The notes under the pieces: model-generated
What the model saw: only the letters and a program-made list of their open reading frames with translations
The model's database searches: none
What the model was told of the DNA's origin: nothing
Source: Candidatus Omnitrophota bacterium
GTDB lineage: Bacteria; CAIJMQ01
Length of the DNA stretch: 64,000 nucleotides
Reading direction: 5' to 3'
Assembly (NCBI GenBank): GCA_018812925.1
Contig: JAHJCU010000008.1
Coordinates: 70,744 to 134,743, forward strand
Shown here: piece by piece, positions 8,456 to 49,037 of the stretch
Layout: every line of letters begins with the position of its first letter
Position numbering within the stretch: the first letter of the stretch is position 1
Translations under genes and position numbers: made by a program

Positions 8456-8531
8456 TGGTGGCGAGACCCAGAATCGAACTGGGGACGCCAGGATTTTCAG
8501 TCCTGCGCTCTACCGACTGAGCTATCTCGCC
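8456..8531 (-). tRNA. tRNA-Phe (GAA), CCA encoded
   Basis: Hand-folded cloverleaf: GGCGAGA acceptor, anticodon loop CTGAAAA, T-loop TTCGATT, 3' ACCA. Confidence 0.95.
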
Positions 8532-8568
8532 ATTTCTTTATTTGATGCTTACCATAAACCAAAAATCT

Positions 8569-8593
8569 CTGTCCGCTTTGCAAGCAGGCGGGG
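8569..8593. repeat. GC-rich palindromic element copy (CTGTCCG-CTTTGCAAG-CAGGCGGGG) between two tRNAs
   Basis: Matches the arms and loop of the copies at 16934 and 18059. Confidence 0.8.
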
Positions 8594-8633: not shown

Positions 8634-8707
8634 CGCGCCTGGCAGGAATCGAACCTGCAACCTACGGATTAGAAATCCGTTGCTCTATCCGATTGAGCTA
8701 CAGGCGC
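8634..8707 (-). tRNA. tRNA-Arg (TCT)
   Basis: Hand-folded cloverleaf: GCGCCTG acceptor, anticodon loop TTTCTAA, T-loop TTCGATT. CCA is not encoded. Confidence 0.93.
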
Positions 8708-15469: not shown

Positions 15470-16843
15470 ATGCTCAAAAAATTTTTTAAACAAGATAAAG
15501 ATATTACAACAGGACCTATTCTGCCAAAAATGCTTTCTCTTACCGGTCCTCTGATGGTAACAGCCATTCTCAATTCTACGCTCAATTTAATCGATATGTT
15601 CTGGGTCGGAAAACTCGGCAGCGATTCCATAGCAGCGGTAGCCATAGGCGGAACTATTATGATGGTTGTTTTTGCAACACTTATAGGCATAACCAGAGGA
15701 ACCATTGCGCTTGTTGCCCGATATGTGGGAGCAAAAGATGCAAAAAATGCGGACGCCGTCGCAAGCCAATCCATAATGCTGGGTTTAATTATAGCTTTGG
15801 CTACAATATTAGTCGGGCTTTTATTTACGGATAAACTATTTCTGATATTAGGCGCAAGTCCGGAAGTTTTAAAAATCGGCAGTTCATATCTTAAGATAAT
15901 TCTCATAGGCGGAATAACAATGGTTTTGCTATCCTTCGGAAACTCCATACTACAAGCAGAGGGAGATACGGTAACACCTATGAAATTCATGTTTCTTTCA
16001 AATATTATCAACATTATATTAGACCCCATATTCATATTCGGATTGGGCGTTCCAAGAATGAACACATCAGGCGCCGCTTTGGCAACAGTGCTGTCTCAAG
16101 CTGTGCCCGCTTTTTTAGTGCTTCTTTTACTTTCTAAAAGACGCTCCAAAGTTCATATACACATTTCACAGTTTAAAATTAAACTGACATTTTTAAAAGA
16201 AATGCTCAAAATAGGACTGCCTGCTTCATTGCAGATGTTTTTCAGAAGTATAATGGGCTTAGTTCTAATGGGTATTGTCGCAAGTTTTGGAACAGCGGCT
16301 ATTGCCGCTTATGGAATCGGCATGAGACTACAAATGCTTGTTCTTATGCCGGCCTTTGCCTTTGGCGGCGCCGCCGCTACCCTGGCAGGACAAAACTTGG
16401 GCGCCAAACAGCCCAAAAGAGCCCAAAGAAGCGCATGGACAGCAACAACTCTCGATATGTTTCTAATGATTTTAGTAGCCATTCTATTCTTTATTTTTGC
16501 TCCGCAAATTGTCGGATTTTTTATAAAAGATAAAAATGTAATTTCTATTGGAACTCAATTTTTAAGAATAACCGCGCCTTTCTATTTATTTATTCCGCTG
16601 GGTGTTGTGCTTGGACAATCATTAGCCGGCGCAGGAGATACAATAACGCCGATGTTTATCACATTGTTGTCGCTTTGGGGATTTCAGATACCTATGGCAA
16701 TATATCTTTCCCAAGCAACTATGTGGGGAATTAACGGCATTTGGTGGACAAACGCTTTTGCTTCAGTTCTGCACGGACTTCTCATAATGGGTTGGTTTAC
16801 AACAGGAAGATGGAAGAAAAGAATAATATCTTCTATAGTATAG
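15470..16843 (+). CDS. MATE family efflux transporter
   Basis: 457 aa, about 12 TM helices, with the two-fold repeat pattern typical of NorM/DinF-type MATE pumps. Confidence 0.88.
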   Translation: MLKKFFKQDKDITTGPILPKMLSLTGPLMVTAILNSTLNLIDMFWVGKLGSDSIAAVAIGGTIMMVVFATLIGITRGTIALVARYVGAKDAKNADAVASQSIMLGLIIALATILVGLLFTDKLFLILGASPEVLKIGSSYLKIILIGGITMVLLSFGNSILQAEGDTVTPMKFMFLSNIINIILDPIFIFGLGVPRMNTSGAALATVLSQAVPAFLVLLLLSKRRSKVHIHISQFKIKLTFLKEMLKIGLPASLQMFFRSIMGLVLMGIVASFGTAAIAAYGIGMRLQMLVLMPAFAFGGAAATLAGQNLGAKQPKRAQRSAWTATTLDMFLMILVAILFFIFAPQIVGFFIKDKNVISIGTQFLRITAPFYLFIPLGVVLGQSLAGAGDTITPMFITLLSLWGFQIPMAIYLSQATMWGINGIWWTNAFASVLHGLLIMGWFTTGRWKKRIISSIV

Positions 16844-16915
16844 ATATACAATAGATATATATGAAAACATAGTAGATATAAATGGATATATATAGAAATA
16901 CGTAGTAAAAACAGG
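16844..16915. repeat. 11-nt-period TAGATATA word array after the MATE gene
   Basis: tagatata recurs at 11- and 22-nt spacing. Confidence 0.6.
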
Positions 16916-16933
16916 CAAAAGGTAACGGTAACG

Positions 16934-16958
16934 CCCGCCTGCTTGCGAAGCGGGCAGG
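16934..16958. repeat. GC-rich palindromic element copy (CCCGCCTG-CTTGCGAAG-CGGGCAGG)
   Basis: Its reverse complement is nearly identical to the intragenic copy at 18059-18082. Confidence 0.85.
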
Positions 16959-16960
16959 AA

Positions 16961-17070
16961 GCCCGTATCGGTTAATTTACGTAACCCGTAACTCGTAATT
17001 GGTAATTTTTAAAATTACGGATTACGATTTACAGATTACCGATTACGAAAAAATGGGCATCGTAACCTTA
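16961..17070. repeat. GTAA/TTAC heptamer-periodic inverted array (long imperfect hairpin)
   Basis: cgtaacc cgtaact cgtaatt ggtaatt ttt aaaattac ggattac gatttac agattac cgattac. Confidence 0.8.
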
Positions 17071-17100
17071 ACCGTAACCTATTTAAATGGAGGTTTCATT

Positions 17101-17613
17101 ATGAACGTATATGAAGCAATAAATAAAAGAAGAAGTGTTCGTGCTTATCAAGATAAGCCGATACCTGAAAATATCTTAACAAAAATTTTAGACGCCGCAA
17201 GAATAGCTCCCTCTGCCAAAAACAGACAACAATTCAAACTTATAGTTGTCAAAGATAGCCAAACGCGGAAGAAACTGGTAGAAGCGGCTAACAATCAACA
17301 ATTTGTTGGGGAAGCTCCTGTAGTAATCGCTGCCGTTGGCCTTACGCCAAACGATAAAATGCGCTGTGATATTCCTACCGACCCGGTAGACGTTGCTATA
17401 GTCATGGACCATATAACTCTTGCAGCGGTAGAAGAAGGTTTGGGAACATGCTGGATTGGTTCATTCTATCAGGACAAGGTGCGTGAAATTTTAGGAATTC
17501 CTTCTTCTTGTAAAGTTGTTGAACTTCTCACATTGGGATACCCGTCAGATTCACCAAAACCCAAATCCCGAAAATCTTTAGACGAGATAGTTTGTTATGA
17601 AAAATTTTGTTAA
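17101..17613 (+). CDS. nitroreductase family protein
   Basis: MNVYEAINKRRSVRAY start and an ARIAPSAKNRQ motif. The ATG follows GGAGG. The upstream ORF extension is just translated heptamer repeat. Confidence 0.85.
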   Translation: MNVYEAINKRRSVRAYQDKPIPENILTKILDAARIAPSAKNRQQFKLIVVKDSQTRKKLVEAANNQQFVGEAPVVIAAVGLTPNDKMRCDIPTDPVDVAIVMDHITLAAVEEGLGTCWIGSFYQDKVREILGIPSSCKVVELLTLGYPSDSPKPKSRKSLDEIVCYEKFC

Positions 17614-17696
17614 AGCGAGTTATAATCAAATATCGTCTTTAGTCGTTGCGAGATAGATTCCTCTCCCTTGTTCTTGTGAGCAAATATAGTGAGTAC

Positions 17697-17715
17697 GGCA
17701 ATCTATGAGATTGCC
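17697..17715. repeat. perfect 8-bp hairpin GGCAATCT-ATG-AGATTGCC
   Basis: Read directly. The stem resembles hairpin 3 of the 65-nt element. Confidence 0.7.
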
Positions 17716-17747
17716 TGTCCGCTTCTTGCAGAAACAAGCAGGCGGAC
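17714..17747. repeat. GC-rich palindromic element copy with a long loop (CCTGTCCG-N18-CAGGCGGAC)
   Basis: Arms match the family consensus with 1-2 changes. Confidence 0.7.
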
Positions 17748-17767
17748 TTCGTCGTTTTCACTCCTCG

Positions 17768-17832
17768 CCCCTAGAAATTGCGAATGCAATTTCAGGGACC
17801 AAAGTCCCGGAAATCCTATGGATTTCATGGGG
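17768..17832 (-). repeat. 65-nt three-hairpin element, copy 3 (divergent)
   Basis: Minus-strand read: CCCC AT [GAAATCC ATA GGATTTC] C [GGGAC TTTG GTCCC] T [GAAATTGC ATTC GCAATTTC] TA GGGG. Lies 46 nt after the uvrC stop. Confidence 0.8.
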
Positions 17833-17877
17833 CAATGACAAAAGAAGACAGGAATACCTATTTTGGGCTTTTGTTCG

Positions 17878-19590
17878 CTAATGAGAAGAATTCTGGACTT
17901 CTTTTTTCTTCAGTTTTCCATAATAAGAATGTGCAAATCTATGTGCTTCGTCACGGACACGCGCAAGAAAACGGAAAGATTCCATGCGAGGATTTAAGAT
18001 TATCATTCTGGAAGAATAAGATAAGTGAATTTTGTTCTCACCTCTTGACCCGTATAGACCTGCCCGCTTCGCAGCAGGCGGGAATCCATTTCTAACGGGT
18101 TTAGCTATTCCTACAATTGGCATATTCTCTATGCCTAACTCGTTGAAAACTTGTTTGGCAATGTTAACTTGTCCTTTACCTCCATCTACGAGGACTAAAT
18201 CAGGCAATTTAGTTTTTTCGTTAAGTATTCGCTTATATCTTCTTTCAATTATTTCCCCCATCATCATATAATCATCCGACGTATCAATGCTTTTAATTTT
18301 GAATTTTCTCCATTCATTTTTCTTGGGAGAACCCTTCTCAAAGACAACTACGCTTCCGACCGCATTCTTCCCCATTATATTTGAAATATCTATTCCTTCT
18401 ATTCTAAAAGGAACCGAAGGAAGATTTAATCTCTCTTTAAGGTCTGTAAGCATATTTATGGGTTCAGATTTTAATGAGAATCCCTCCATTAATTTATATT
18501 GCGCATTATCGCTTGCCATCTTGAGCAATCTCTTCTTATCACCCCTTTGGGGAACGGAAATCTTTACGGTTTTGCCTTTGGTTTTTTTCAGCCATTTTTC
18601 CAAAAGATTCTTTTCTTTCAGAATAACCGGAACAAATATTTCATCGGGAATACCTGCCCGACAATATTCAGCAGGCGGGAGAGAACTCAATGAATAATAT
18701 TGTTCTATGAAAGATAGAACAGCTTCTTCTATTTTAGAATCTATTATCACTATCAAGTTGAATTTTTCCTGCGCCGATAATTTCCCATTTCGCACCTTAA
18801 ATAAAACAATTAAAGCTTTATTTTTAGATCTCGCATAACCTATGAAATCCTGATTTTGTCCGTCTAATTTCGAAATTGTTTGAAGGGAAAACATTTTATG
18901 GATTGATTCTATTTGGTCTCTAAATTTTGCGGATTTTTCATACTCTTTAGATGCGCTCGCCTCATTCATTCTATTTTTAAGGTAAGAAAGCAACTTTTGG
19001 GTTTCCCCCGAAAGAAACATAGAAACATTTTCAATCATTTCCATATAATCTTCTTTTGAAACCTTACCCGTGCAGGGACCTACACATCTTGCAATATGAT
19101 AATTAAGACAGGGTTTGCCGTCTATTTTGGTTTTCTTACAAGTCTTAAAAATAAAAGTCTTTCGCAGCAGCAATAGAGTCTTTCTTAAAGATTTTGCATC
19201 GGTGTATGGACCAAAATATTTTGCTTTTCCATCCTCCAGGTCACGCGTTATATAAACCGTCGGAAACTGTTCTTCCCGAGCTATCTTTATATAAGGATAA
19301 CTTTTATCATCTCTCAACATTATGTTGTATCTGGGTTTGTGTTCTTTGATTAGATTGCATTCAAGTATCAATGCTTCAACTGCAGATTGAGTAATGAGGT
19401 AATCTATTGATACTGTTTTTTTTGTTAAGACAGCGTCCTTGCCGAAAAAATCGGGATTTTGAAAATGCGACTTTACTCTGTTTCTTATATTCCCTGCTTT
19501 GCCTATATAGAGATAATTGCCGTTTCTATCTTTGAAAATATAAACGCCGGCAGAAGTCGGAAGTGCGTTTACCTTTTCTCTAATTTCCAT
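17878..19590 (-). CDS. uvrC: excinuclease ABC subunit C (apparently lacks the C-terminal HhH2 domain)
   Basis: GIY-YIG N-terminus GVYIFKDRNGNYLYIGKAGNIRNRV, a UVR domain, and the endonuclease region LVDGGKGQ...RDEAHRFA. The ORF ends about 25 aa later. Confidence 0.9.
   Translation of the reverse strand: MEIREKVNALPTSAGVYIFKDRNGNYLYIGKAGNIRNRVKSHFQNPDFFGKDAVLTKKTVSIDYLITQSAVEALILECNLIKEHKPRYNIMLRDDKSYPYIKIAREEQFPTVYITRDLEDGKAKYFGPYTDAKSLRKTLLLLRKTFIFKTCKKTKIDGKPCLNYHIARCVGPCTGKVSKEDYMEMIENVSMFLSGETQKLLSYLKNRMNEASASKEYEKSAKFRDQIESIHKMFSLQTISKLDGQNQDFIGYARSKNKALIVLFKVRNGKLSAQEKFNLIVIIDSKIEEAVLSFIEQYYSLSSLPPAEYCRAGIPDEIFVPVILKEKNLLEKWLKKTKGKTVKISVPQRGDKKRLLKMASDNAQYKLMEGFSLKSEPINMLTDLKERLNLPSVPFRIEGIDISNIMGKNAVGSVVVFEKGSPKKNEWRKFKIKSIDTSDDYMMMGEIIERRYKRILNEKTKLPDLVLVDGGKGQVNIAKQVFNELGIENMPIVGIAKPVRNGFPPAAKRAGLYGSRGENKIHLSYSSRMIILNPRMESFRFLARVRDEAHRFAHSYYGKLKKKEVQNSSH
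18059..18082. repeat. GC-rich palindromic element inside uvrC, in-frame (encodes PPAAKRAG)
   Basis: cctgcccgcttcgcagcaggcggg. Coding strand reads CCG CCT GCT GCG AAG CGG GCA GGT. Confidence 0.85.
18653..18679. repeat. GC-rich palindromic element inside uvrC, in-frame (encodes PPAEYCRAG)
   Basis: cctgcccgacaatattcagcaggcggg. Coding strand reads CCG CCT GCT GAA TAT TGT CGG GCA GGT. Confidence 0.85.
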
Positions 19591-19672: not shown

Positions 19673-21196
19673 CTAAGTTTTTCTTGTTTTTAACCAATCC
19701 CACAGTTGCTGCATTTCTTTTACCTGGAAAACAAAACAAAAAGAAATATAAGACAATCCCCCGATAAGAATTATAAGAAATAAATTGAAAGATTTAAACA
19801 GATAACATACTACTCCCATCCCGACACTTGCCAAAAGAATGCGCAAGAAAGAATAAACTATCTCATTTGCATTAAAAGGTTCAATCTTTTTCTTAAGTAT
19901 GAAAAACAACATGAAGAAGGTAATTATTCCTGAAATAGATGTAGCCAAAGCTATTCCCCCCAATTTCATGGGGAAAATAAGAACGGCATTCAAAGCTATA
20001 TTCATAACTAAGGCAACAAAAGCAATTTTTGCAGGAGTTGCAGTATCTTTTAAGGCGAAAAAACAGGACTGTAATATTCTTTTAGCTCCGTAGGCAAATA
20101 AACCGATACTGTAAAAGAATAAAACGCTCGCAGTTATATTAGTAGCATAGGCATCAAATTTGCCGCTTTTAAATATAGTAGAAATAATCGGGTGAGCTAA
20201 AACCATAAAGCCAATCGATGCCGGAAGCATTACAAAAAATGTTGCGCGTAGTCCAAATGAAAGCGTATGCTTCAACTTATCATAATTATCTTCCAAAGCC
20301 TGCGTAGAAAATGTCGGCAGTATCGCCTGCGACAGCGCAGTGCTAAAAATACCCAAAGGGAAAAGAATCAAACGATACGCAAAATATAGTCCCGCCACTC
20401 CTCCTTCGCCTACAATAGCCAAAGAACCAAATATCGTGTCCACGAAATTGTTTAATTGATAAACACCCGAACTTAAGACCCGTGGAACCATCAGTTTGCC
20501 GATAGTTTTAGCCGCTGGGTGATTGAAATTGTGAGGAAATTTTAAACGAAAGCCCTTTTTATAAAGAATAGGAATTTGGAAAAAAAGTTGTAAAGCGCCG
20601 CCGACAAGAACGCCCAGCGACAAACCTTTGATATTCTCTCCAAAAATAAGGGCAAAGATAATTATCGAAATATTCAAAAGACACGGCGCAAATGCAGGGA
20701 TAGAAAAATGTTTCAGAGAATTAAGAACTGCCATAGCATAAGCCGCTAATCCAACCAAAATAATATACGGAAATATAATGCGGGTTAAGGTAATAGTGGT
20801 TTGTAATTTATATGGGTCGGCAGTAAAACCCGGCGCTATAAGCCGCACGATAACGGGAGAAAATACTATCCCCAGAAACGTAATTAAAGTCAGGGCTACC
20901 AAAAGCAGATTTAAAACAACATTTGCCAATTGCCAGAATTCTTCTTTGGAATGTTTTACGGTATATTCGCTGAATACGGGGACAATCGCGGCATTGGCAG
21001 CGCCCTCGCCGACAAAATCTCTGAACAAATTGGGGATTTTAAAAGCAATGACGAAAGCTTGAGCGTATACGCCTACGCCAAATAATTTAGCAATAATAAC
21101 ATCGCGGATAAAACCCAATATGCGTGATATAAAAGTCGCAAAACTTATAATGCCTGCTGATTTAGTAACAGCTTTGTTTATTGAAGTGGTTTTCAT
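19673..21196 (-). CDS. murJ: lipid II flippase MurJ (MviN family)
   Basis: 507 aa, about 14 TM helices. N-terminal GIISFATFISRILGFIRDVIIAKLFG is typical of MurJ. Confidence 0.9.
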   Translation of the reverse strand: MKTTSINKAVTKSAGIISFATFISRILGFIRDVIIAKLFGVGVYAQAFVIAFKIPNLFRDFVGEGAANAAIVPVFSEYTVKHSKEEFWQLANVVLNLLLVALTLITFLGIVFSPVIVRLIAPGFTADPYKLQTTITLTRIIFPYIILVGLAAYAMAVLNSLKHFSIPAFAPCLLNISIIIFALIFGENIKGLSLGVLVGGALQLFFQIPILYKKGFRLKFPHNFNHPAAKTIGKLMVPRVLSSGVYQLNNFVDTIFGSLAIVGEGGVAGLYFAYRLILFPLGIFSTALSQAILPTFSTQALEDNYDKLKHTLSFGLRATFFVMLPASIGFMVLAHPIISTIFKSGKFDAYATNITASVLFFYSIGLFAYGAKRILQSCFFALKDTATPAKIAFVALVMNIALNAVLIFPMKLGGIALATSISGIITFFMLFFILKKKIEPFNANEIVYSFLRILLASVGMGVVCYLFKSFNLFLIILIGGLSYISFCFVFQVKEMQQLWDWLKTRKT

Positions 21197-21347: not shown

Positions 21348-21362
21348 AAATTTCTAACGGGG
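21348..21362 (+). promoter_or_regulatory. 15-mer AAATTTCTAACGGGG upstream of mtnA (identical 15-mer upstream of cysE)
   Basis: Exact match to the complement of 46610-46624. Lies 38 nt before the mtnA ATG. Confidence 0.4.
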
Positions 21363-24300: not shown

Positions 24301-24378
24301 TATCGTGATTGGTAACTGGTAAAGCGTAATTTTTTAAAATTACCATTTACGAATTACTATTTACGGATTACGGTTTTC
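24301..24378. repeat. GTAA/TTAC heptamer-periodic hairpin (the 'empty' version without the 65-nt element)
   Basis: ttggtaa ctggtaa agcgtaa tttttt aaaattac catttac gaattac tatttac ggattac. Confidence 0.85.
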
Positions 24379-25158: not shown

Positions 25159-25326
25159 CCGTAATTGGTAACTCGTAAAGCGCCCCGTGGAATCTAAAAG
25201 ATTCCCGGGACCAAAGTCCTTGAGATTGTTCATCAATCTCTAAGGGTAATTCGTAACTTTTTTTAATTACCAATTACCATTTACGGATTGCTGTTTACCA
25301 TTTTCGTAATTAGTAATTACGAAAAT
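25159..25326. repeat. GTAA/TTAC heptamer-periodic hairpin carrying the 65-nt element in its left arm
   Basis: cgtaattggtaactcgtaaagc [65 nt] gtaattcgtaac ttttttt aattaccaattaccatttacgg... Confidence 0.8.
25182..25246 (+). repeat. 65-nt three-hairpin element, copy 1
   Basis: GCCCC GT [GGAATCT AAA AGATTCC] C [GGGAC CAAA GTCC] TT [GAGATTG TTCAT CAATCTC] TAA GGG. Confidence 0.85.
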
Positions 25327-25403: not shown

Positions 25404-25520
25404 AGCTAGAAATCAAAAAACGGATGCTAGATGCTTGATACTAGATACTCGTAGAAGCAAACGAAAATAATTTTATTAACGAGCATCCAGAATCTAGTAT
25501 CGAGAATCGAGTAATTCTGA
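25404..25520. repeat. CTAGAT-word palindromic repeat, copy A
   Basis: Shares tagatactcgtagaa..aataatttattaac.agcatc.agaatctag.atc with the copy at 37099 and arms with the copy at 34342. Confidence 0.8.
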
Positions 25521-26790: not shown

Positions 26791-26862
26791 GTAAGTTGTA
26801 AGTCTTAAGTTATAAGTTACAAGTTTATACTTACTACTTACAACCTAAAACTTAGAACTAGT
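26791..26862. repeat. TAAGTT/AACTTA heptamer-periodic hairpin after cinA
   Basis: gtaagtt gtaagtc ttaagtt ataagtt acaagtt tatactt actactt acaacct aaaactt agaac. Confidence 0.8.
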
Positions 26863-29012: not shown

Positions 29013-29013
29013 A

Positions 29014-29085
29014 TCGGTTTGCGGTATTCGGTTATCGGTTATCGCGAAAACCGACAACCGTTTTTTTCTTTTCCGATAACCATTA
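29014..29085. repeat. CGGTTAT/CGAAAAC heptamer-periodic hairpin, copy 1
   Basis: cggtttg cggtatt cggttat cggttat cg cgaaaa ccgacaaccg ... ccgataacc. Confidence 0.8.
29029..29067 (+). terminator. intrinsic terminator of rplI
   Basis: CGGTTATCGG - 12-nt loop - CCGACAACCG (9/10 bp) followed by TTTTTTT. Confidence 0.7.
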
Positions 29086-29091
29086 ATTCAT

Positions 29092-29895
29092 ATGGATAGA
29101 GCCAAAGTTCTTGCAAATGCCAAGCGCATAGTCGTAAAAATCGGCAGCCGCGTTATAACCTCATCCAAAAACGAACTGGATTCATCCCTAATAAACGCTT
29201 TAGTTAAGGATATTGAAGCGCTATACAGAAAAAAACATCAGATTTTAATTGTAACTTCCGGCGCAATAGTGGCGGGGCTAAAAGATTTAAAACTCGGCTC
29301 AAGACCTACCGACCTGCCTTTAAAACAAGCCGCATCCGCAGTGGGACAAGTAAAACTAATGCACAGTTACGTTACCGCATTTAAAAAATATGATATCCCT
29401 GTTGCGCAAATTCTTTTGACACAGGAGGATTTGCACAACGGCAAGAGATATTTAAATGCAAAAAATACCTTGCGTCGTCTTTTAGACAAAGGTGTTATAC
29501 CTATCATTAACGAAAACGATACGGTTGCCGTGGAAGAAATAAAATTCGGGGACAACGACACACTTTCAGCTTTAGTTTCTCTTATGATGGATGTGGACTT
29601 ATTAACAATCCTTACAAATACAGACGGTTTATATACCGACATCCCTTGCGACAATAAGAGAGCTGAATTCGTGCCTTATGTAAAGAAGATTACACCTGCA
29701 ATAGAAAAAATGGCTAAAGCTAAAGGCGACGGCGCAGGCGGGATGGAAACAAAAATTAAAGCGGCTAAAATGCTAACTCAATCAGGAATACCCGTTGTTA
29801 TTGCTAACGGTAGAGAAAAACAGATATTAAATAAGATAATTTCAGGTAAAGAAATCGGCACATTCTTCGCTGCGATTGAAAAGAAGAAGAAATAA
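29092..29895 (+). CDS. proB: glutamate 5-kinase (no PUA domain)
   Basis: IVVKIGSRVITS, VTSGAI and INENDTVA motifs. 267 aa. Confidence 0.92.
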   Translation: MDRAKVLANAKRIVVKIGSRVITSSKNELDSSLINALVKDIEALYRKKHQILIVTSGAIVAGLKDLKLGSRPTDLPLKQAASAVGQVKLMHSYVTAFKKYDIPVAQILLTQEDLHNGKRYLNAKNTLRRLLDKGVIPIINENDTVAVEEIKFGDNDTLSALVSLMMDVDLLTILTNTDGLYTDIPCDNKRAEFVPYVKKITPAIEKMAKAKGDGAGGMETKIKAAKMLTQSGIPVVIANGREKQILNKIISGKEIGTFFAAIEKKKK

Positions 29896-37202: not shown

Positions 37203-38345
37203 ATGAAGAATAAAACGGACACCAAATTCATTAAAGAGGCATTGGCTCTCGCAGTAAAAGCCGAAGGGCTCACGTCCCCCAATCCTTTGGTCGGCGCTGT
37301 TATCGTAAAGGGGAACAAAATTATCGGAAGAGGTTATCATAAAAGAGCAGGTTCTAAGCACGCTGAAATCCTTGCCCTTGAATCAGCAGGAAAGCCTGCC
37401 CACCAGCCCGCTACGAAGCTGGCAGGCAACCGAAAGGCAGGCGGGAAAACAAAAGGAGCTACTCTGTATATCAACCTTGAGCCATGCGCTCATTACGGTA
37501 AAACACCGCCCTGCGCTCCCGAAATAATAAAAGCAGGTATAAAAAGAGTTGTAATAGCTATGCCGGACCCAAATCCTTTGGTCAATGGTAAGGGGATAAA
37601 GAAACTTAAATCCGAAGGGATAGATGTACAAGTCGGTATCCTTGAACAGGATGCTAGAAAAATAAACGAAACATATATCAAATATATGACTAAAAAAATG
37701 CCGTTTGTAGTTTTGAAATGGGCTATGAGCTTAGACGGTAAAATAGCCACTCGTAAAGGCAATTCAAAATGGATTTCAGGGAAGGCTTCCAGAGAATTCA
37801 CACAAAAATTAAGAGGTAAATTCGATGCGGTTCTAATAGGGATAGAAACACTTCTTAAAGATAACCCTCAACTTAACACTCACGGTTTGGAAATAAAAGA
37901 ACCAAAAAGAATAATTATTGACAGTAAAGGAAGAATCCCTTTGGATTGCAATCTGTTAAAAACTAAAGGTGGACAGATTATAATTACCACAACAGATAAA
38001 ATAAGCAAAAAGAAAATAAGAGATTTGAAGGAAAAAGGAGCAGAGATTATAGTTATTTCTTCAAAAGAAGGCAGAGTCGACTTAAAGAAACTTATGATAG
38101 AATTAGCCAAACGAGAAATTACATCTATATTGGTTGAAGGCGGCGGAACAATAAATGCTTCATTTATAGAAAATGCCTTGGCAGATAAATTTGTGGCATT
38201 TTTATCTCCTATGATAATCGGCGGTAAAAACGCAATTTCCCCTGTAGAAGGAAAAGGAATAGAAAAAATAGCCAATGCTGTAAGAATCCGCGACTTATCT
38301 ATAAGGAAAATGGGAGAAGATGTAGTAATGGAAGGATATTTATAA
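37203..38345 (+). CDS. ribD: bifunctional riboflavin biosynthesis deaminase/reductase
   Basis: HAEILAL ... LEPCAHYGKTPPC zinc motif and a C-terminal reductase domain. Carries an about 17-20 aa insert between the two halves of the deaminase motif. Confidence 0.92.
   Translation: MKNKTDTKFIKEALALAVKAEGLTSPNPLVGAVIVKGNKIIGRGYHKRAGSKHAEILALESAGKPAHQPATKLAGNRKAGGKTKGATLYINLEPCAHYGKTPPCAPEIIKAGIKRVVIAMPDPNPLVNGKGIKKLKSEGIDVQVGILEQDARKINETYIKYMTKKMPFVVLKWAMSLDGKIATRKGNSKWISGKASREFTQKLRGKFDAVLIGIETLLKDNPQLNTHGLEIKEPKRIIIDSKGRIPLDCNLLKTKGGQIIITTTDKISKKKIRDLKEKGAEIIVISSKEGRVDLKKLMIELAKREITSILVEGGGTINASFIENALADKFVAFLSPMIIGGKNAISPVEGKGIEKIANAVRIRDLSIRKMGEDVVMEGYL
37395..37445. repeat. nested GC-rich palindromic elements inside ribD, in-frame (51 nt)
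   Basis: cctgccca ccag [cccgctacgaagctggcagg] caaccgaaagg caggcggg, encoding PAHQPATKLAGNRKAGG. Confidence 0.8.
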
Positions 38346-38360
38346 ATCGTCAGAAAAATA

Positions 38361-38424
38361 ACGGTTATAGGTTATCGGTTATCGTAAAAAAACGAAAACC
38401 GAATACCGAAAACCGCTAACCGAT
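38361..38424. repeat. CGGTTAT/CGAAAAC heptamer-periodic hairpin, copy 2 (ribD-ribE spacer)
   Basis: cggttat aggttat cggttat cg taaaaaaa cgaaaac cgaatac cgaaaac cgctaac cg. Confidence 0.8.
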
Positions 38425-47134: not shown

Positions 47135-48415
47135 TTATTTATATATCAGATACTTCTCTCTTTTTTCATTAAATTCGTTTAATTCTATTTCCCATTTTTT
47201 TATAATTTCGTCAACATTTTTACCTTCTCTTATTTCATCTAATATATAATCTACCCCCCAGATTTCATTAAAATCTTTGGACGGAATATATTTGCCGGGA
47301 TATAATGATTCCAATGAAGTTAAAATCTCCAATGCCGTTTTAACAGGCTTAAAAGTTCTTTTGTCAGTAAGCACTAACCTTATGCCTCCAAGCTCCTTAT
47401 CTTTAAACGAAAAATAAAACGGTTTAAACCAGTAGGGCTGGAATTTTACACCGGGAATATTCTTAGCATTTAATTTTTCCGCAAATTTATTCGGGTCAAT
47501 CCATTCGCTGCCAATCAACTCAAACGGGAGAGTATATCCCACACCGTTACACAAATTAGCGCTACCGATAGTTCCTGTCGTAGCGTATAGAAAAGCGGAC
47601 TCAACTGTGGGAATATGCGGAGAAGTTGGAACCCAATCAAGACTGGTATCATCCCAAATCATATTTCTCGTCCAGACTTTCATAGGCACAACAGTCAGTT
47701 TAAGTTCAATTTTATATTCTTCTCTTATAAATTTCGCCATCTCGCCTATAGTCATACCATGAACCAAAGGAATATCGAACAAACCAATGAAACTTTTATG
47801 CTCTTCTTTTATTATGGGTCCTTCTATATTAAACCCGCCCAAGGGATTTGGCCTATCTAAAACCACAAATTCCTTTCCATATTTTGCGGCTGATTCCATA
47901 GCATAAAACAATGTTGAAATATAAGTATATGTTCTGGCGCCTATATCCTGAATGTCAAAAAGTAAAACATCTATTTCGGATAACATCTCTTCGGTAGGGC
48001 AACGGGTCTTTCCATAAATTGAATATACCGGCAGTTTTGTTTTTTCATCTACAATTTTACTTACATGTTTTCCGGCTAATACTTCGCCTCTTATACCGTG
48101 TTCGGGAGCAAAAAGAGCAACAAGATTGAAGGCAGGATTTTCATAAAGAATATCGGTTGTTGATTTTAAATTTGAATCTACGCCCGTGGGATTGGTTATA
48201 AGTCCTAATCTTTTATTTTTGAGAATTTCCACATAGCCTGTGTCTTCCTTCAACACTTCTATGCCTAATTTTACCCCGTTAGAAGTTTTCAACACAATTT
48301 CTTTAGTATCATTCAAACTTTCCGTATTACTTCTAACGGGGCAAAAAACAGAATTAACGAATAGAAAAAAGGGCATAATCGCAATTACAATGAAGAGTCG
48401 TCTTGATAAACGCAT
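47135..48415 (-). CDS. DUF1343 family protein (exo-beta-N-acetylmuramidase NamZ-like), secreted
   Basis: Signal peptide, then KRLGLITNPTGVD, FAPEHGIRG and FDIQDIGARTYTY motifs. Confidence 0.85.
   Translation of the reverse strand: MRLSRRLFIVIAIMPFFLFVNSVFCPVRSNTESLNDTKEIVLKTSNGVKLGIEVLKEDTGYVEILKNKRLGLITNPTGVDSNLKSTTDILYENPAFNLVALFAPEHGIRGEVLAGKHVSKIVDEKTKLPVYSIYGKTRCPTEEMLSEIDVLLFDIQDIGARTYTYISTLFYAMESAAKYGKEFVVLDRPNPLGGFNIEGPIIKEEHKSFIGLFDIPLVHGMTIGEMAKFIREEYKIELKLTVVPMKVWTRNMIWDDTSLDWVPTSPHIPTVESAFLYATTGTIGSANLCNGVGYTLPFELIGSEWIDPNKFAEKLNAKNIPGVKFQPYWFKPFYFSFKDKELGGIRLVLTDKRTFKPVKTALEILTSLESLYPGKYIPSKDFNEIWGVDYILDEIREGKNVDEIIKKWEIELNEFNEKREKYLIYK
48274..48341. repeat. perfect 13-bp inverted repeat CCCCGTTAGAAGT - 42 nt - ACTTCTAACGGGG inside the NamZ-like CDS
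   Basis: Read directly. Encodes CPVRSN...KTSNGV between the signal peptide and the conserved domain. Confidence 0.85.
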
Positions 48416-48485: not shown

Positions 48486-49037
48486 ATGTCAAATATAATT
48501 TTTTATACTTTCCTTGACTCATTTTTAGGAACAATAGGGCTCGCTTCGTCTTCTTCGGGCGTGGTATATGTGGATATGGGAATAAAAAAAAGAGCTTTTT
48601 TATGTAAACTAAAGCAAAAATTCCCGACCTGTAAACTAATAAAATCGGAAAAGAAAAACTCTAAAGCGATATGTGAATTAAACTCTTATCTGAAAGGAAA
48701 TATGAAATCGTTTGAAAGTAAGCTGGATTTAAAAGGCCCGCCCAAATCATGTCGGGCAGGTCCTCCAAAATCTCGGCGGGCAGGCACGCCTTTTCAGATT
48801 AAAGTATGGAATTGTTTAAGAAAAATTCCTTACGGTAAAATGTATTCATATAAATTTATTGCCTGTAAAATAGCAACATGCTCCCATTCGCGCGCGGTCG
48901 GCAATGCTGTCGCTAAAAATCCTGTTGCGATATTTATTCCCTGTCATAGAGTAATCAATTCCAACGGGGATTTGGGGAATTATGGCCCCGGCAAGAACTT
49001 CAAGAAAATGTTATTAAAGATTGAAAAAGCAATATAA
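48486..49037 (+). CDS. ogt: methylated-DNA-protein-cysteine methyltransferase
   Basis: TPFQIKVW, IPYGKMYSY, and active site IPCHRVI. Confidence 0.88.
   Translation: MSNIIFYTFLDSFLGTIGLASSSSGVVYVDMGIKKRAFLCKLKQKFPTCKLIKSEKKNSKAICELNSYLKGNMKSFESKLDLKGPPKSCRAGPPKSRRAGTPFQIKVWNCLRKIPYGKMYSYKFIACKIATCSHSRAVGNAVAKNPVAIFIPCHRVINSNGDLGNYGPGKNFKKMLLKIEKAI
48737..48784. repeat. two tandem GC-rich palindromic elements inside ogt, in-frame (48 nt, PPKSCRAG PPKSRRAG)
   Basis: cccgcccaaatcatgtcgggcagg tcctccaaaatctcggcgggcagg. Splits the conserved G-TPFQ junction. Confidence 0.85.

Follow-up and report, generated by a model that had tools for sequence, protein, structure and literature searches.

A 64,000-nucleotide (nt) stretch of contig JAHJCU010000008.1 (GCA_018812925.1), hereafter the window, carries on its minus strand an intact uvrC gene. 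A 24-nt GC-rich hairpin, designated element B, lies in-frame in the part of this gene that encodes the C-terminal endonuclease domain, nested within a 33-nt element designated A, and these two elements, their other copies and their likely origin are described here. The UvrC open reading frame (ORF) has Pfam matches to GIY-YIG, UVR and two UvrC RNase-H domains, and its closest named relative is a Candidatus Ratteibacteria UvrC. The source genome is Candidatus Ratteibacteria-like, and the GC content of the window is 36%. The gene is under purifying selection, with a ratio of nonsynonymous to synonymous substitutions (dN/dS) of 0.13-0.32 against its relatives. No HHH Pfam match for the C-terminal (HhH)2 domain was obtained in the window UvrC, whose ORF stops 17 amino acids (aa) past RDEAHRFA; this domain is likewise missing in the database proteins P0002-P0008 and is kept in the next relatives outward, from P0009 onward, so that its absence looks like a clade-wide loss from an otherwise conserved gene. 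The features of the window are listed in Table 1.

Table 1 Positions of uvrC, the A and B elements and related repeats in the window
Feature	Coordinates	Strand	Sequence or peptide	Context
uvrC host gene	17878..19590	-		570-aa ORF; Pfam domains and solved structures
Composite insert, 57 nt	18043..18099	-	33-nt A, CCCGTTAGAAATGGATT / TCTATACGGGTCAAGA	residues 498-516; B after A position 17
B element, 24 nt	18059..18082	-	CCCGCCTGCTGCGAAGCGGGCAGG; encodes (F)PPAAKRA(G)	residues 503-511; exact 24-nt indel
Second uvrC B copy, 27 nt	18653..18679	-	CCCGCCTGCTGAATATTGTCGGGCAGG, loop TGAATATTG; encodes (L)PPAEYCRA(G)	residues 304-313
Intergenic B, 25 nt	16934..16958	+	CCCGCCTGCTTGCGAAGCGGGCAGG	reverse complement of uvrC B plus one base
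220-nt composite, about 5 small hairpins	17614..17834	.		between converging stop codons of a nitroreductase gene and uvrC
Long-loop B variant	17714..17746	-	TCCGCCTGC...GCGGACAGG	inside the 220-nt composite
Degenerate B	8568..8592	-	CCCGCCTGCTTGCAAAGCGGACAGA	102-nt spacer between two tRNA genes
B-type insert, GC-rich, 51 nt	37395..37445	-	encodes PAHQPATKLAGNRKAGG	antisense to gene, in-frame in ribD (37203-38345)
Two tandem 24-nt B-like units	48737..48784	+	PPKSCRAG PPKSRRAG	in-frame in ogt/MGMT (48486-49037)

Element B in uvrC reads CCTGCCCGCTTCGCAGCAGGCGGG on the plus strand and is laid out on the coding strand as CCCGCCTGC-TGCGAA-GCGGGCAGG, with a reading frame that runs from the third base of F503 through PPAAKRA to G511; it is stop-free in all six frames. 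Folded as single-stranded DNA it has a stem of 9 bp, which includes one bulged A and one T-G pair, and a GCGA loop, at a folding energy of -7.1 kcal/mol, and the 60-nt composite of A and B folds with z = -3.6. The core includes GCGAAGC, which we take to be a notably stable DNA mini-hairpin. The initial annotation had called the segment a GC-rich palindromic element, and the GC-rich hairpin stands, while the palindrome is imperfect (one bulge or mismatch, one G-T pair). Its further statements that the segment lies within uvrC, encodes PPAAKRAG and nearly equals the reverse complement of an intergenic copy are borne out in the 570-aa ORF and at 16934-16958, where the copy has one extra base. No chance matches to B at up to 3 mismatches are expected in the window (100 shuffles), and both arm words are more than 10-fold over-represented there, with 6 occurrences of the arm 9-mer CCCGCCTGC against 0.16 expected and 6 of CGGGCAGG against 0.53. 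The occurrence of CCCGCCTGC at 29734, within a kinase motif, was set aside as a chance match. Among the copies the arms are constant and the loops vary.

In an alignment of 18 UvrC relatives, nearly all run from G-[IL]-A-K straight into GENKIHLSY, and the segment is also missing from the solved Thermotoga and Bacillus UvrC structures; the window protein has 19 extra residues, PVRNGFPPAAKRAGLYGSR, between GIAK and GENKIHLSY. In Deinococcus UvrC this position is taken up by a longer, unrelated loop, so that length variation is tolerated here. The codon boundary of the insertion was found in five states among orthologous DNA: empty, GCC AAA / GGC GAA (loci L013, L088, L089 and L090); A only, as the 33-nt palindrome CCCGTTAGAAATAAATTTCTAACGAGGTCAAGA (L002 and L086); A with the 24-nt B (the window); A with a different, 27-nt B, CCCGCCTGCCAAATTTTGGCGGGCAGG, after A position 12 (L010); and A within A, in which a second 33-nt A-like palindrome lies inside the first (L011). 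B itself is missing from L013 and from the nearest relatives, L002 and L086, which have 94-98% identity in the uvrC DNA on either side and lack exactly these 24 nt (junction of the B-absent allele AAATGGATT / TCTATACGGG), in agreement with the proposal in the initial annotation that the segment had spread recently and was not an ancient protein feature. The window and L002 are 94-98% identical across the 3' two-thirds of uvrC, and the insertion of B is therefore very recent. The L010 copy, with loop CAAATTTTG, lies 5 nt from the window position in the same A element, so the two copies in two lineages represent independent insertion events. Unsupervised MAFFT alignment of the 6-kb syntenic regions gave indels of exactly 24, 27 and 33/57 nt. 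A metagenome scan with UvrC for further orthologues returned only 2 loci.

The second uvrC copy of B places PPAEYCRAG behind residue 304 and is missing from 7/7 orthologous loci, with an empty site of TCTCT/TATT and a filled site of TCTCT-B-TATT. All three filled/empty comparisons (in two the empty allele itself is at hand; in the third it was deduced from an A-only allele whose A sequence differs) had neither target duplication nor deletion, and the insertion was immediately 5' of a T. B was inserted exactly, with nothing duplicated or lost at the target, and its insert is a multiple of 3 in length. Other lineages carry inserts elsewhere in uvrC: L002, L089 and L090 have GC-rich inserts of 27-36 nt after TRDL, L013 has 27 extra nt after GYA, and in L088 a 33-nt A element follows EQYYS. 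Eight of eight insert lengths (24, 27, 27, 33, 33, 27, 48 and 51) are multiples of 3 and stop-free, and the sense-orientation copies of B (5/5) share one codon phase, giving PP..RAG. If translated, the inserts would give the peptides NGFPPAAKRAGLYGSR and LSSLPPAEYCRAGIPDE. An AlphaFold2 model built from the alignment had predicted local distance difference test (pLDDT) values below 50 at residues 304-312 and 499-517, which cover both inserts, and of 85-93 in the flanks, so that both uvrC inserts are predicted to be disordered surface loops. An insert of this kind might also be left untranslated, by ribosome bypass or removal from the mRNA, like the GC-cluster byp elements of Magnusiomyces mitochondria, which a GC-rich hairpin in a 36% GC genome does resemble (PMC8811140). 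This explanation is very improbable here, because all inserts are stop-free and have lengths that are multiples of 3 (chance about 1.5e-4), a constraint that neither bypass nor excision would impose, and the codon phase is non-random.

The A elements of L002 and L010 are identical at 33/33 positions, although the genes differ at 42.5% of third codon positions; the probability of such identity under the gene's own divergence is about 1e-4, which points to a process at the DNA level and not to an old peptide. Gene-wide divergence between the distant lineages is 41-43% at third positions and 14-18% at positions 1 and 2, and the few differences among A elements are first- and second-position changes. 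In the UvrC tree the window, P0002, P0004 and P0005 have A and their sisters P0003 and P0006 lack it, and this patchy distribution likewise argues that A is maintained or re-inserted as DNA and is not an old peptide selected in the protein. Elsewhere in the window the A-type arm CCCGTTAGA has 6 occurrences against 0.26 expected, with sites at 21353, 27501, 46611 and 48275-48340; the last, in the N-terminus of a namZ-like gene (47135-48415), is an inverted arm pair with a 48-nt loop that encodes CPVRS...TSNGV just past the predicted signal-peptide region. The murJ of the P0008 lineage (L089, 2096-2146) has an in-frame 54-nt A-type palindrome, TPLEIPAKQRNAARFLTG, that is missing in the window MurJ.

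It has been largely refuted, and is now scarcely credible, that the uvrC segment is an old lineage-specific loop kept for function or an assembly artefact. The longer Deinococcus loop would fit the former, and assembly GCA_018817465.1, which breaks exactly at the edge of the element, the latter, but the segment is missing from the nearest relatives and identical to dispersed non-coding copies, the enclosing A varies at codon positions 1 and 2 and not at 3, and three independent assemblies agree with contigs from ENA and Logan. The database protein P0001, of 503 aa, ends exactly at B because contig JAHITW010000038.1 of GCA_018817465.1 begins at window position 18081. Identical complete uvrC DNA is present in two other metagenome-assembled genome (MAG) assemblies, L003 and L004 (GCA_018824485.1, on a 165-kb contig, and GCA_018822305.1), the 570-aa protein is on record from 4 contigs (NCBI, ENA and Logan), and faulty contig joining was rejected on these grounds. 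Contigs JAHITW010000038.1 and JAHITW010000042.1 of GCA_018817465.1 overlap by 141 nt (18081-18221), with the branch 2 nt inside B; the overlap looks like a branch of the k-mer graph, and the break may reflect a population variant such as a coexisting flipped B. The two orientations of B have only CC...GG in common at their ends, and the partial proteins P0122 and P0123 of the cluster gave no alternative allele.

Window B sites comprise four intragenic ones in three genes and three intergenic ones. The tandem units in ogt share the codon phase of the uvrC copies and correspond to a 16-aa gap in alignment with solved OGT structures, and the ribD insert corresponds to a 17-aa gap against solved RibD structures. 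The ogt site is flanked by the conserved motifs LDL(K)G and TPFQ, and the ribD site, in the deaminase domain, by the zinc-binding motifs HAE and PCxxC. Intergenic B at 16934-16958 lies where a host palindrome (GGTAACGGTAACG / AAGCCCGTATCGGTTA) has its loop region, adjoining heptamer arrays. The 220-nt composite is missing in L002, L013 and L086, where the nitroreductase gene and uvrC nearly abut, and the tRNA genes on either side of the degenerate copy (8459-8531 and 8634-8707) are both on the minus strand. The nested elements, the repeated insertions into uvrC, ogt and ribD and a 24-mer that is identical across phyla go beyond the initial annotation.

Four of these copies cluster within 1.75 kb (16934-18679), and spread or homogenisation by templated repair or gene conversion, with template switching between nearby hairpins and B derived from a copy about 1.1 kb away, is a serious alternative, if an unlikely one. 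The A around B differs at 6/33 positions from the nearest A-only allele, between flanks that are about 97% identical, as a replaced patch would, and no transposase was found in the 710 kb searched. On the other hand, the insertions are exact to the base and have no flanking homology between donor and target, the uvrC B has an indel against the neighbouring intergenic copy and yet equals the 24-mer of other phyla, and that 24-mer is multi-copy in unrelated genomes.

The distribution of B was determined by a scan of 185,579 species-representative genomes with the pattern CCGCCTGC(N)TGCRAAGCGGRCAG, which gave 72 loci; exact 24-mer counts cover the fetched loci. The exact 24-mer was counted 16 times in a groundwater Bacteroidia MAG (JACREX01), 12 times in a Saprospiraceae MAG, where some copies are in tandem arrays, 9 times in MAG b2.sp2_bin.59, 8 times in a MAG labelled Deinococcus, within a larger repeat, and 3 times in the Ratteibacteria MAG CAZNJA01, and it is also present in Chitinophagales, Cyclobacteriaceae and Desulfotomaculum-labelled MAGs. 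Pattern matches in GC-rich coding DNA (L015, L017, L036, L037, L060, L066, L068 and L083) were treated as chance. Most copies in other genomes are intergenic, in other repeats or in tandem arrays, those of Bacteroidia sitting within tandem heptamers (TTCGATA and similar), and B is also found in long ORFs, including the Der GTPase of CAZNJA01 and WD40 and other large Bacteroidetes proteins. A host palindrome around B, GGTRACGGTNACG-AAGCCCG-TATCGGTTA, is common to the window (16921-16975) and to the unrelated b2.sp2_bin.59 (L018, L021, L049, L053 and others; 50-56% GC), in which B lies on the opposite side of AAGCCCG. This adds a second example of a host hairpin that B has entered at two different positions. 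When viral contigs were checked for a phage vector, the pattern occurred in only 2, both of about 66% GC. BLAST of plasmids with a B dimer gave only partial matches, in GC-rich genomes, the best of which, at 22/24 identity, fell within the ORF of a Deinococcus transposase and was regarded as fortuitous. Rfam gave no match at gathering thresholds anywhere in the window and, at E values up to 10, no meaningful one in 16800-18800, and the B sequence was not found in the literature searched.

The invariance of the sequence across phyla would also be expected if B were a selected DNA or RNA motif, such as an uptake-like signal, a protein-binding site or an mRNA-stabilising hairpin, that is adaptive in repair genes; three of the four intragenic window sites are in DNA-repair genes (uvrC twice, and ogt), and all five sense-orientation copies share their codon phase. 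This is improbable, since just three genes are involved, ribD among them, the sites are polymorphic among close relatives, the uvrC insert positions differ by lineage, and copies elsewhere are mostly intergenic or inside other repeats or tandem arrays. The shared codon phase can be attributed to peptide tolerance, PP..RAG being set against Cys- or Leu-rich alternatives.

The segment at 18059-18082 is most probably a recent copy of B, a selfish and dispersed mini-palindrome of 24-27 nt, within the apex of an older 33-nt A that interrupts uvrC after GIAK in the region of the C-terminal endonuclease domain. B would be non-autonomous and would spread within genomes, being kept in genes only where it is in-frame, stop-free and in a tolerant loop; the finding of only such copies in housekeeping genes would then be due to selection, which lets no others survive. 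The uvrC insert would be translated and neutral or mildly deleterious. Several points weigh against this reading. By itself B is not an exceptionally stable hairpin among GC-rich 24-mers (z = -1.7), its constant arms and variable loops are unexplained by a simple copy-paste model, and it has no GTAG/CGTC tag such as REP and RPE elements have. A tblastn search with E. coli RayT found no homologue at E < 1 in the 710 kb searched, 64 kb of which are from this genome. For the endonuclease domain, dN/dS against the nearest relative reaches 0.60, a value based on very few substitutions, and some relaxed selection on this domain is conceivable.

As to how B moves, a hairpin-specific enzyme of HUH/Y1 type (IS200/IS605 or RAYT) may, tentatively, act on it in trans and move it in the form of a single-stranded hairpin, because target duplication is absent, imperfect arms are conserved around variable loops, and A/T-rich sites and hairpin apices are preferred. 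Such an enzyme would paste the hairpin, with no duplication of the target, into single-stranded DNA rich in A/T, the loops of other extruded hairpins among them, and pasting into such loops would lead to the nesting and to the clustering of four copies within 1.75 kb. Insertion of single-stranded hairpins has been proposed for REP/RAYT and shown for IS200/IS605 (PMC3733652, PMC3116915). A broader reading, which we regard as possible but doubtful, is that B is a pan-bacterial 24-nt hairpin that has the same sequence in three or more phyla (Bacteroidota, Ratteibacteria, and MAGs labelled Deinococcus, Desulfotomaculum or unclassified), inserts with base precision and without target duplication, prefers the single-stranded loops of other hairpins, is moved by a conserved trans-acting activity and repeatedly remodels UvrC, Ogt, RibD, Der, MurJ and WD40 proteins in-frame. 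In this broader reading A would additionally be site-specific, because identical copies occur at the same uvrC codon boundary in genes that are more than 40% different at third positions.

We place B in the mini-palindrome kind and in none of the named families, because it lacks defining features of REP, RPE and MITE. The SDRs of Nostocaceae, as reportedly described by Elhai et al. 2008 (Genome Res 18:1484), are 21-27 nt long, have hairpin potential and occur in heptamer arrays and other small repeats, and in the same study they are said to have been inferred to be mobile. We know of no enzyme for SDR mobility, and to our knowledge repeated in-frame insertion into core enzymes is not attributable to SDRs. 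B resembles SDRs so described in size, hairpin, heptamer association and nesting in other repeats. SDRs have been reported only in heterocystous cyanobacteria (PMC5861425), whereas the hosts of B are Ratteibacteria, Bacteroidota and others.

Like RPEs, B is a dispersed palindrome found in-frame in unrelated housekeeping genes, which it leaves intact, with its peptide placed where the fold tolerates it (PMC10969869, PMC3733652). RPEs are about 100-150 bp long, encode a conserved peptide of 30-50 aa, carry a CGTC tag (PMC3733652) and are confined to Rickettsia, whereas B is 24-27 nt long (8-9 aa), A 33 nt, and B is untagged and occurs in several phyla. The master B has neither CGTC nor GACG at either end, and only a Chitinophagales variant starts with CGTCCGCC. 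REPs and REPINs share with B imperfect GC-rich hairpins of 20-40 nt that are multi-copy, partly in tandem arrays, with no target duplication expected. However, REPs are mainly extragenic and species-specific, whereas about half of the B copies in the window are intragenic, the 24-mer is identical across phyla and no REPIN doublets are formed; occasional intragenic REPs have been reported (PMC3733652, PMC3116915). The GC clusters of yeast mitochondria are likewise short GC-rich palindromes that invade an AT-rich genome, with in-frame polymorphic insertions (var1), rapid change of loops between conserved stems, tandem arrays and mergers (PMC8811140). They differ in being organellar, in having AG/TAG terminal repeats read as target duplications and in being bypassed in translation in some cases, whereas B makes no duplication and all of its insert lengths are multiples of 3. 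MITEs such as ERIC, Correia/NEMIS and RUP are also non-autonomous repeats able to make in-frame fusions (PMC10969869), but they are 70-300 bp or more in length and have target-site duplications and terminal inverted repeats that match those of insertion sequences, none of which is found in B, a single hairpin.

The origin and movement of very small repeats such as REP and SDR is a long-standing open question, for which clean filled/empty pairs are rare. The uvrC locus offers a graded series among close relatives (empty, A only, A with B, A with B elsewhere, A within A), and this series and the fresh second B define the ends of the elements to the base and show insertion without target duplication and nesting into hairpin apices. 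Core enzymes of an uncultured phylum thereby gain loops of 8-19 residues from selfish DNA, which matters for annotation, structure prediction and the reading of indels in MAG proteins. That the 24-mer is identical across phyla speaks for either a mobilising activity in common or horizontal spread, which can be searched for by phylogenetic profiling.

Next to uvrC, the window MurJ (murJ, 19673-21196) has only 40% protein identity to the MurJ of L002 and L013, in DNA whose flanks are 92-100% identical between the window and these loci; the gene at this conserved locus appears to have been replaced, and the drop in identity extends into the 5' third of uvrC. Between its genes the window also has about 20 tandem arrays with a period of 7, for example at 16980-17047, 24338-24372, 25265-25284, 25423-25513, 26792-26825, 29013-29044 and 38362-38423. 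They are often inverted pairs that form long hairpins (16981-17039 and 24304-24365), and they resemble the STRR heptamers of heterocystous cyanobacteria.

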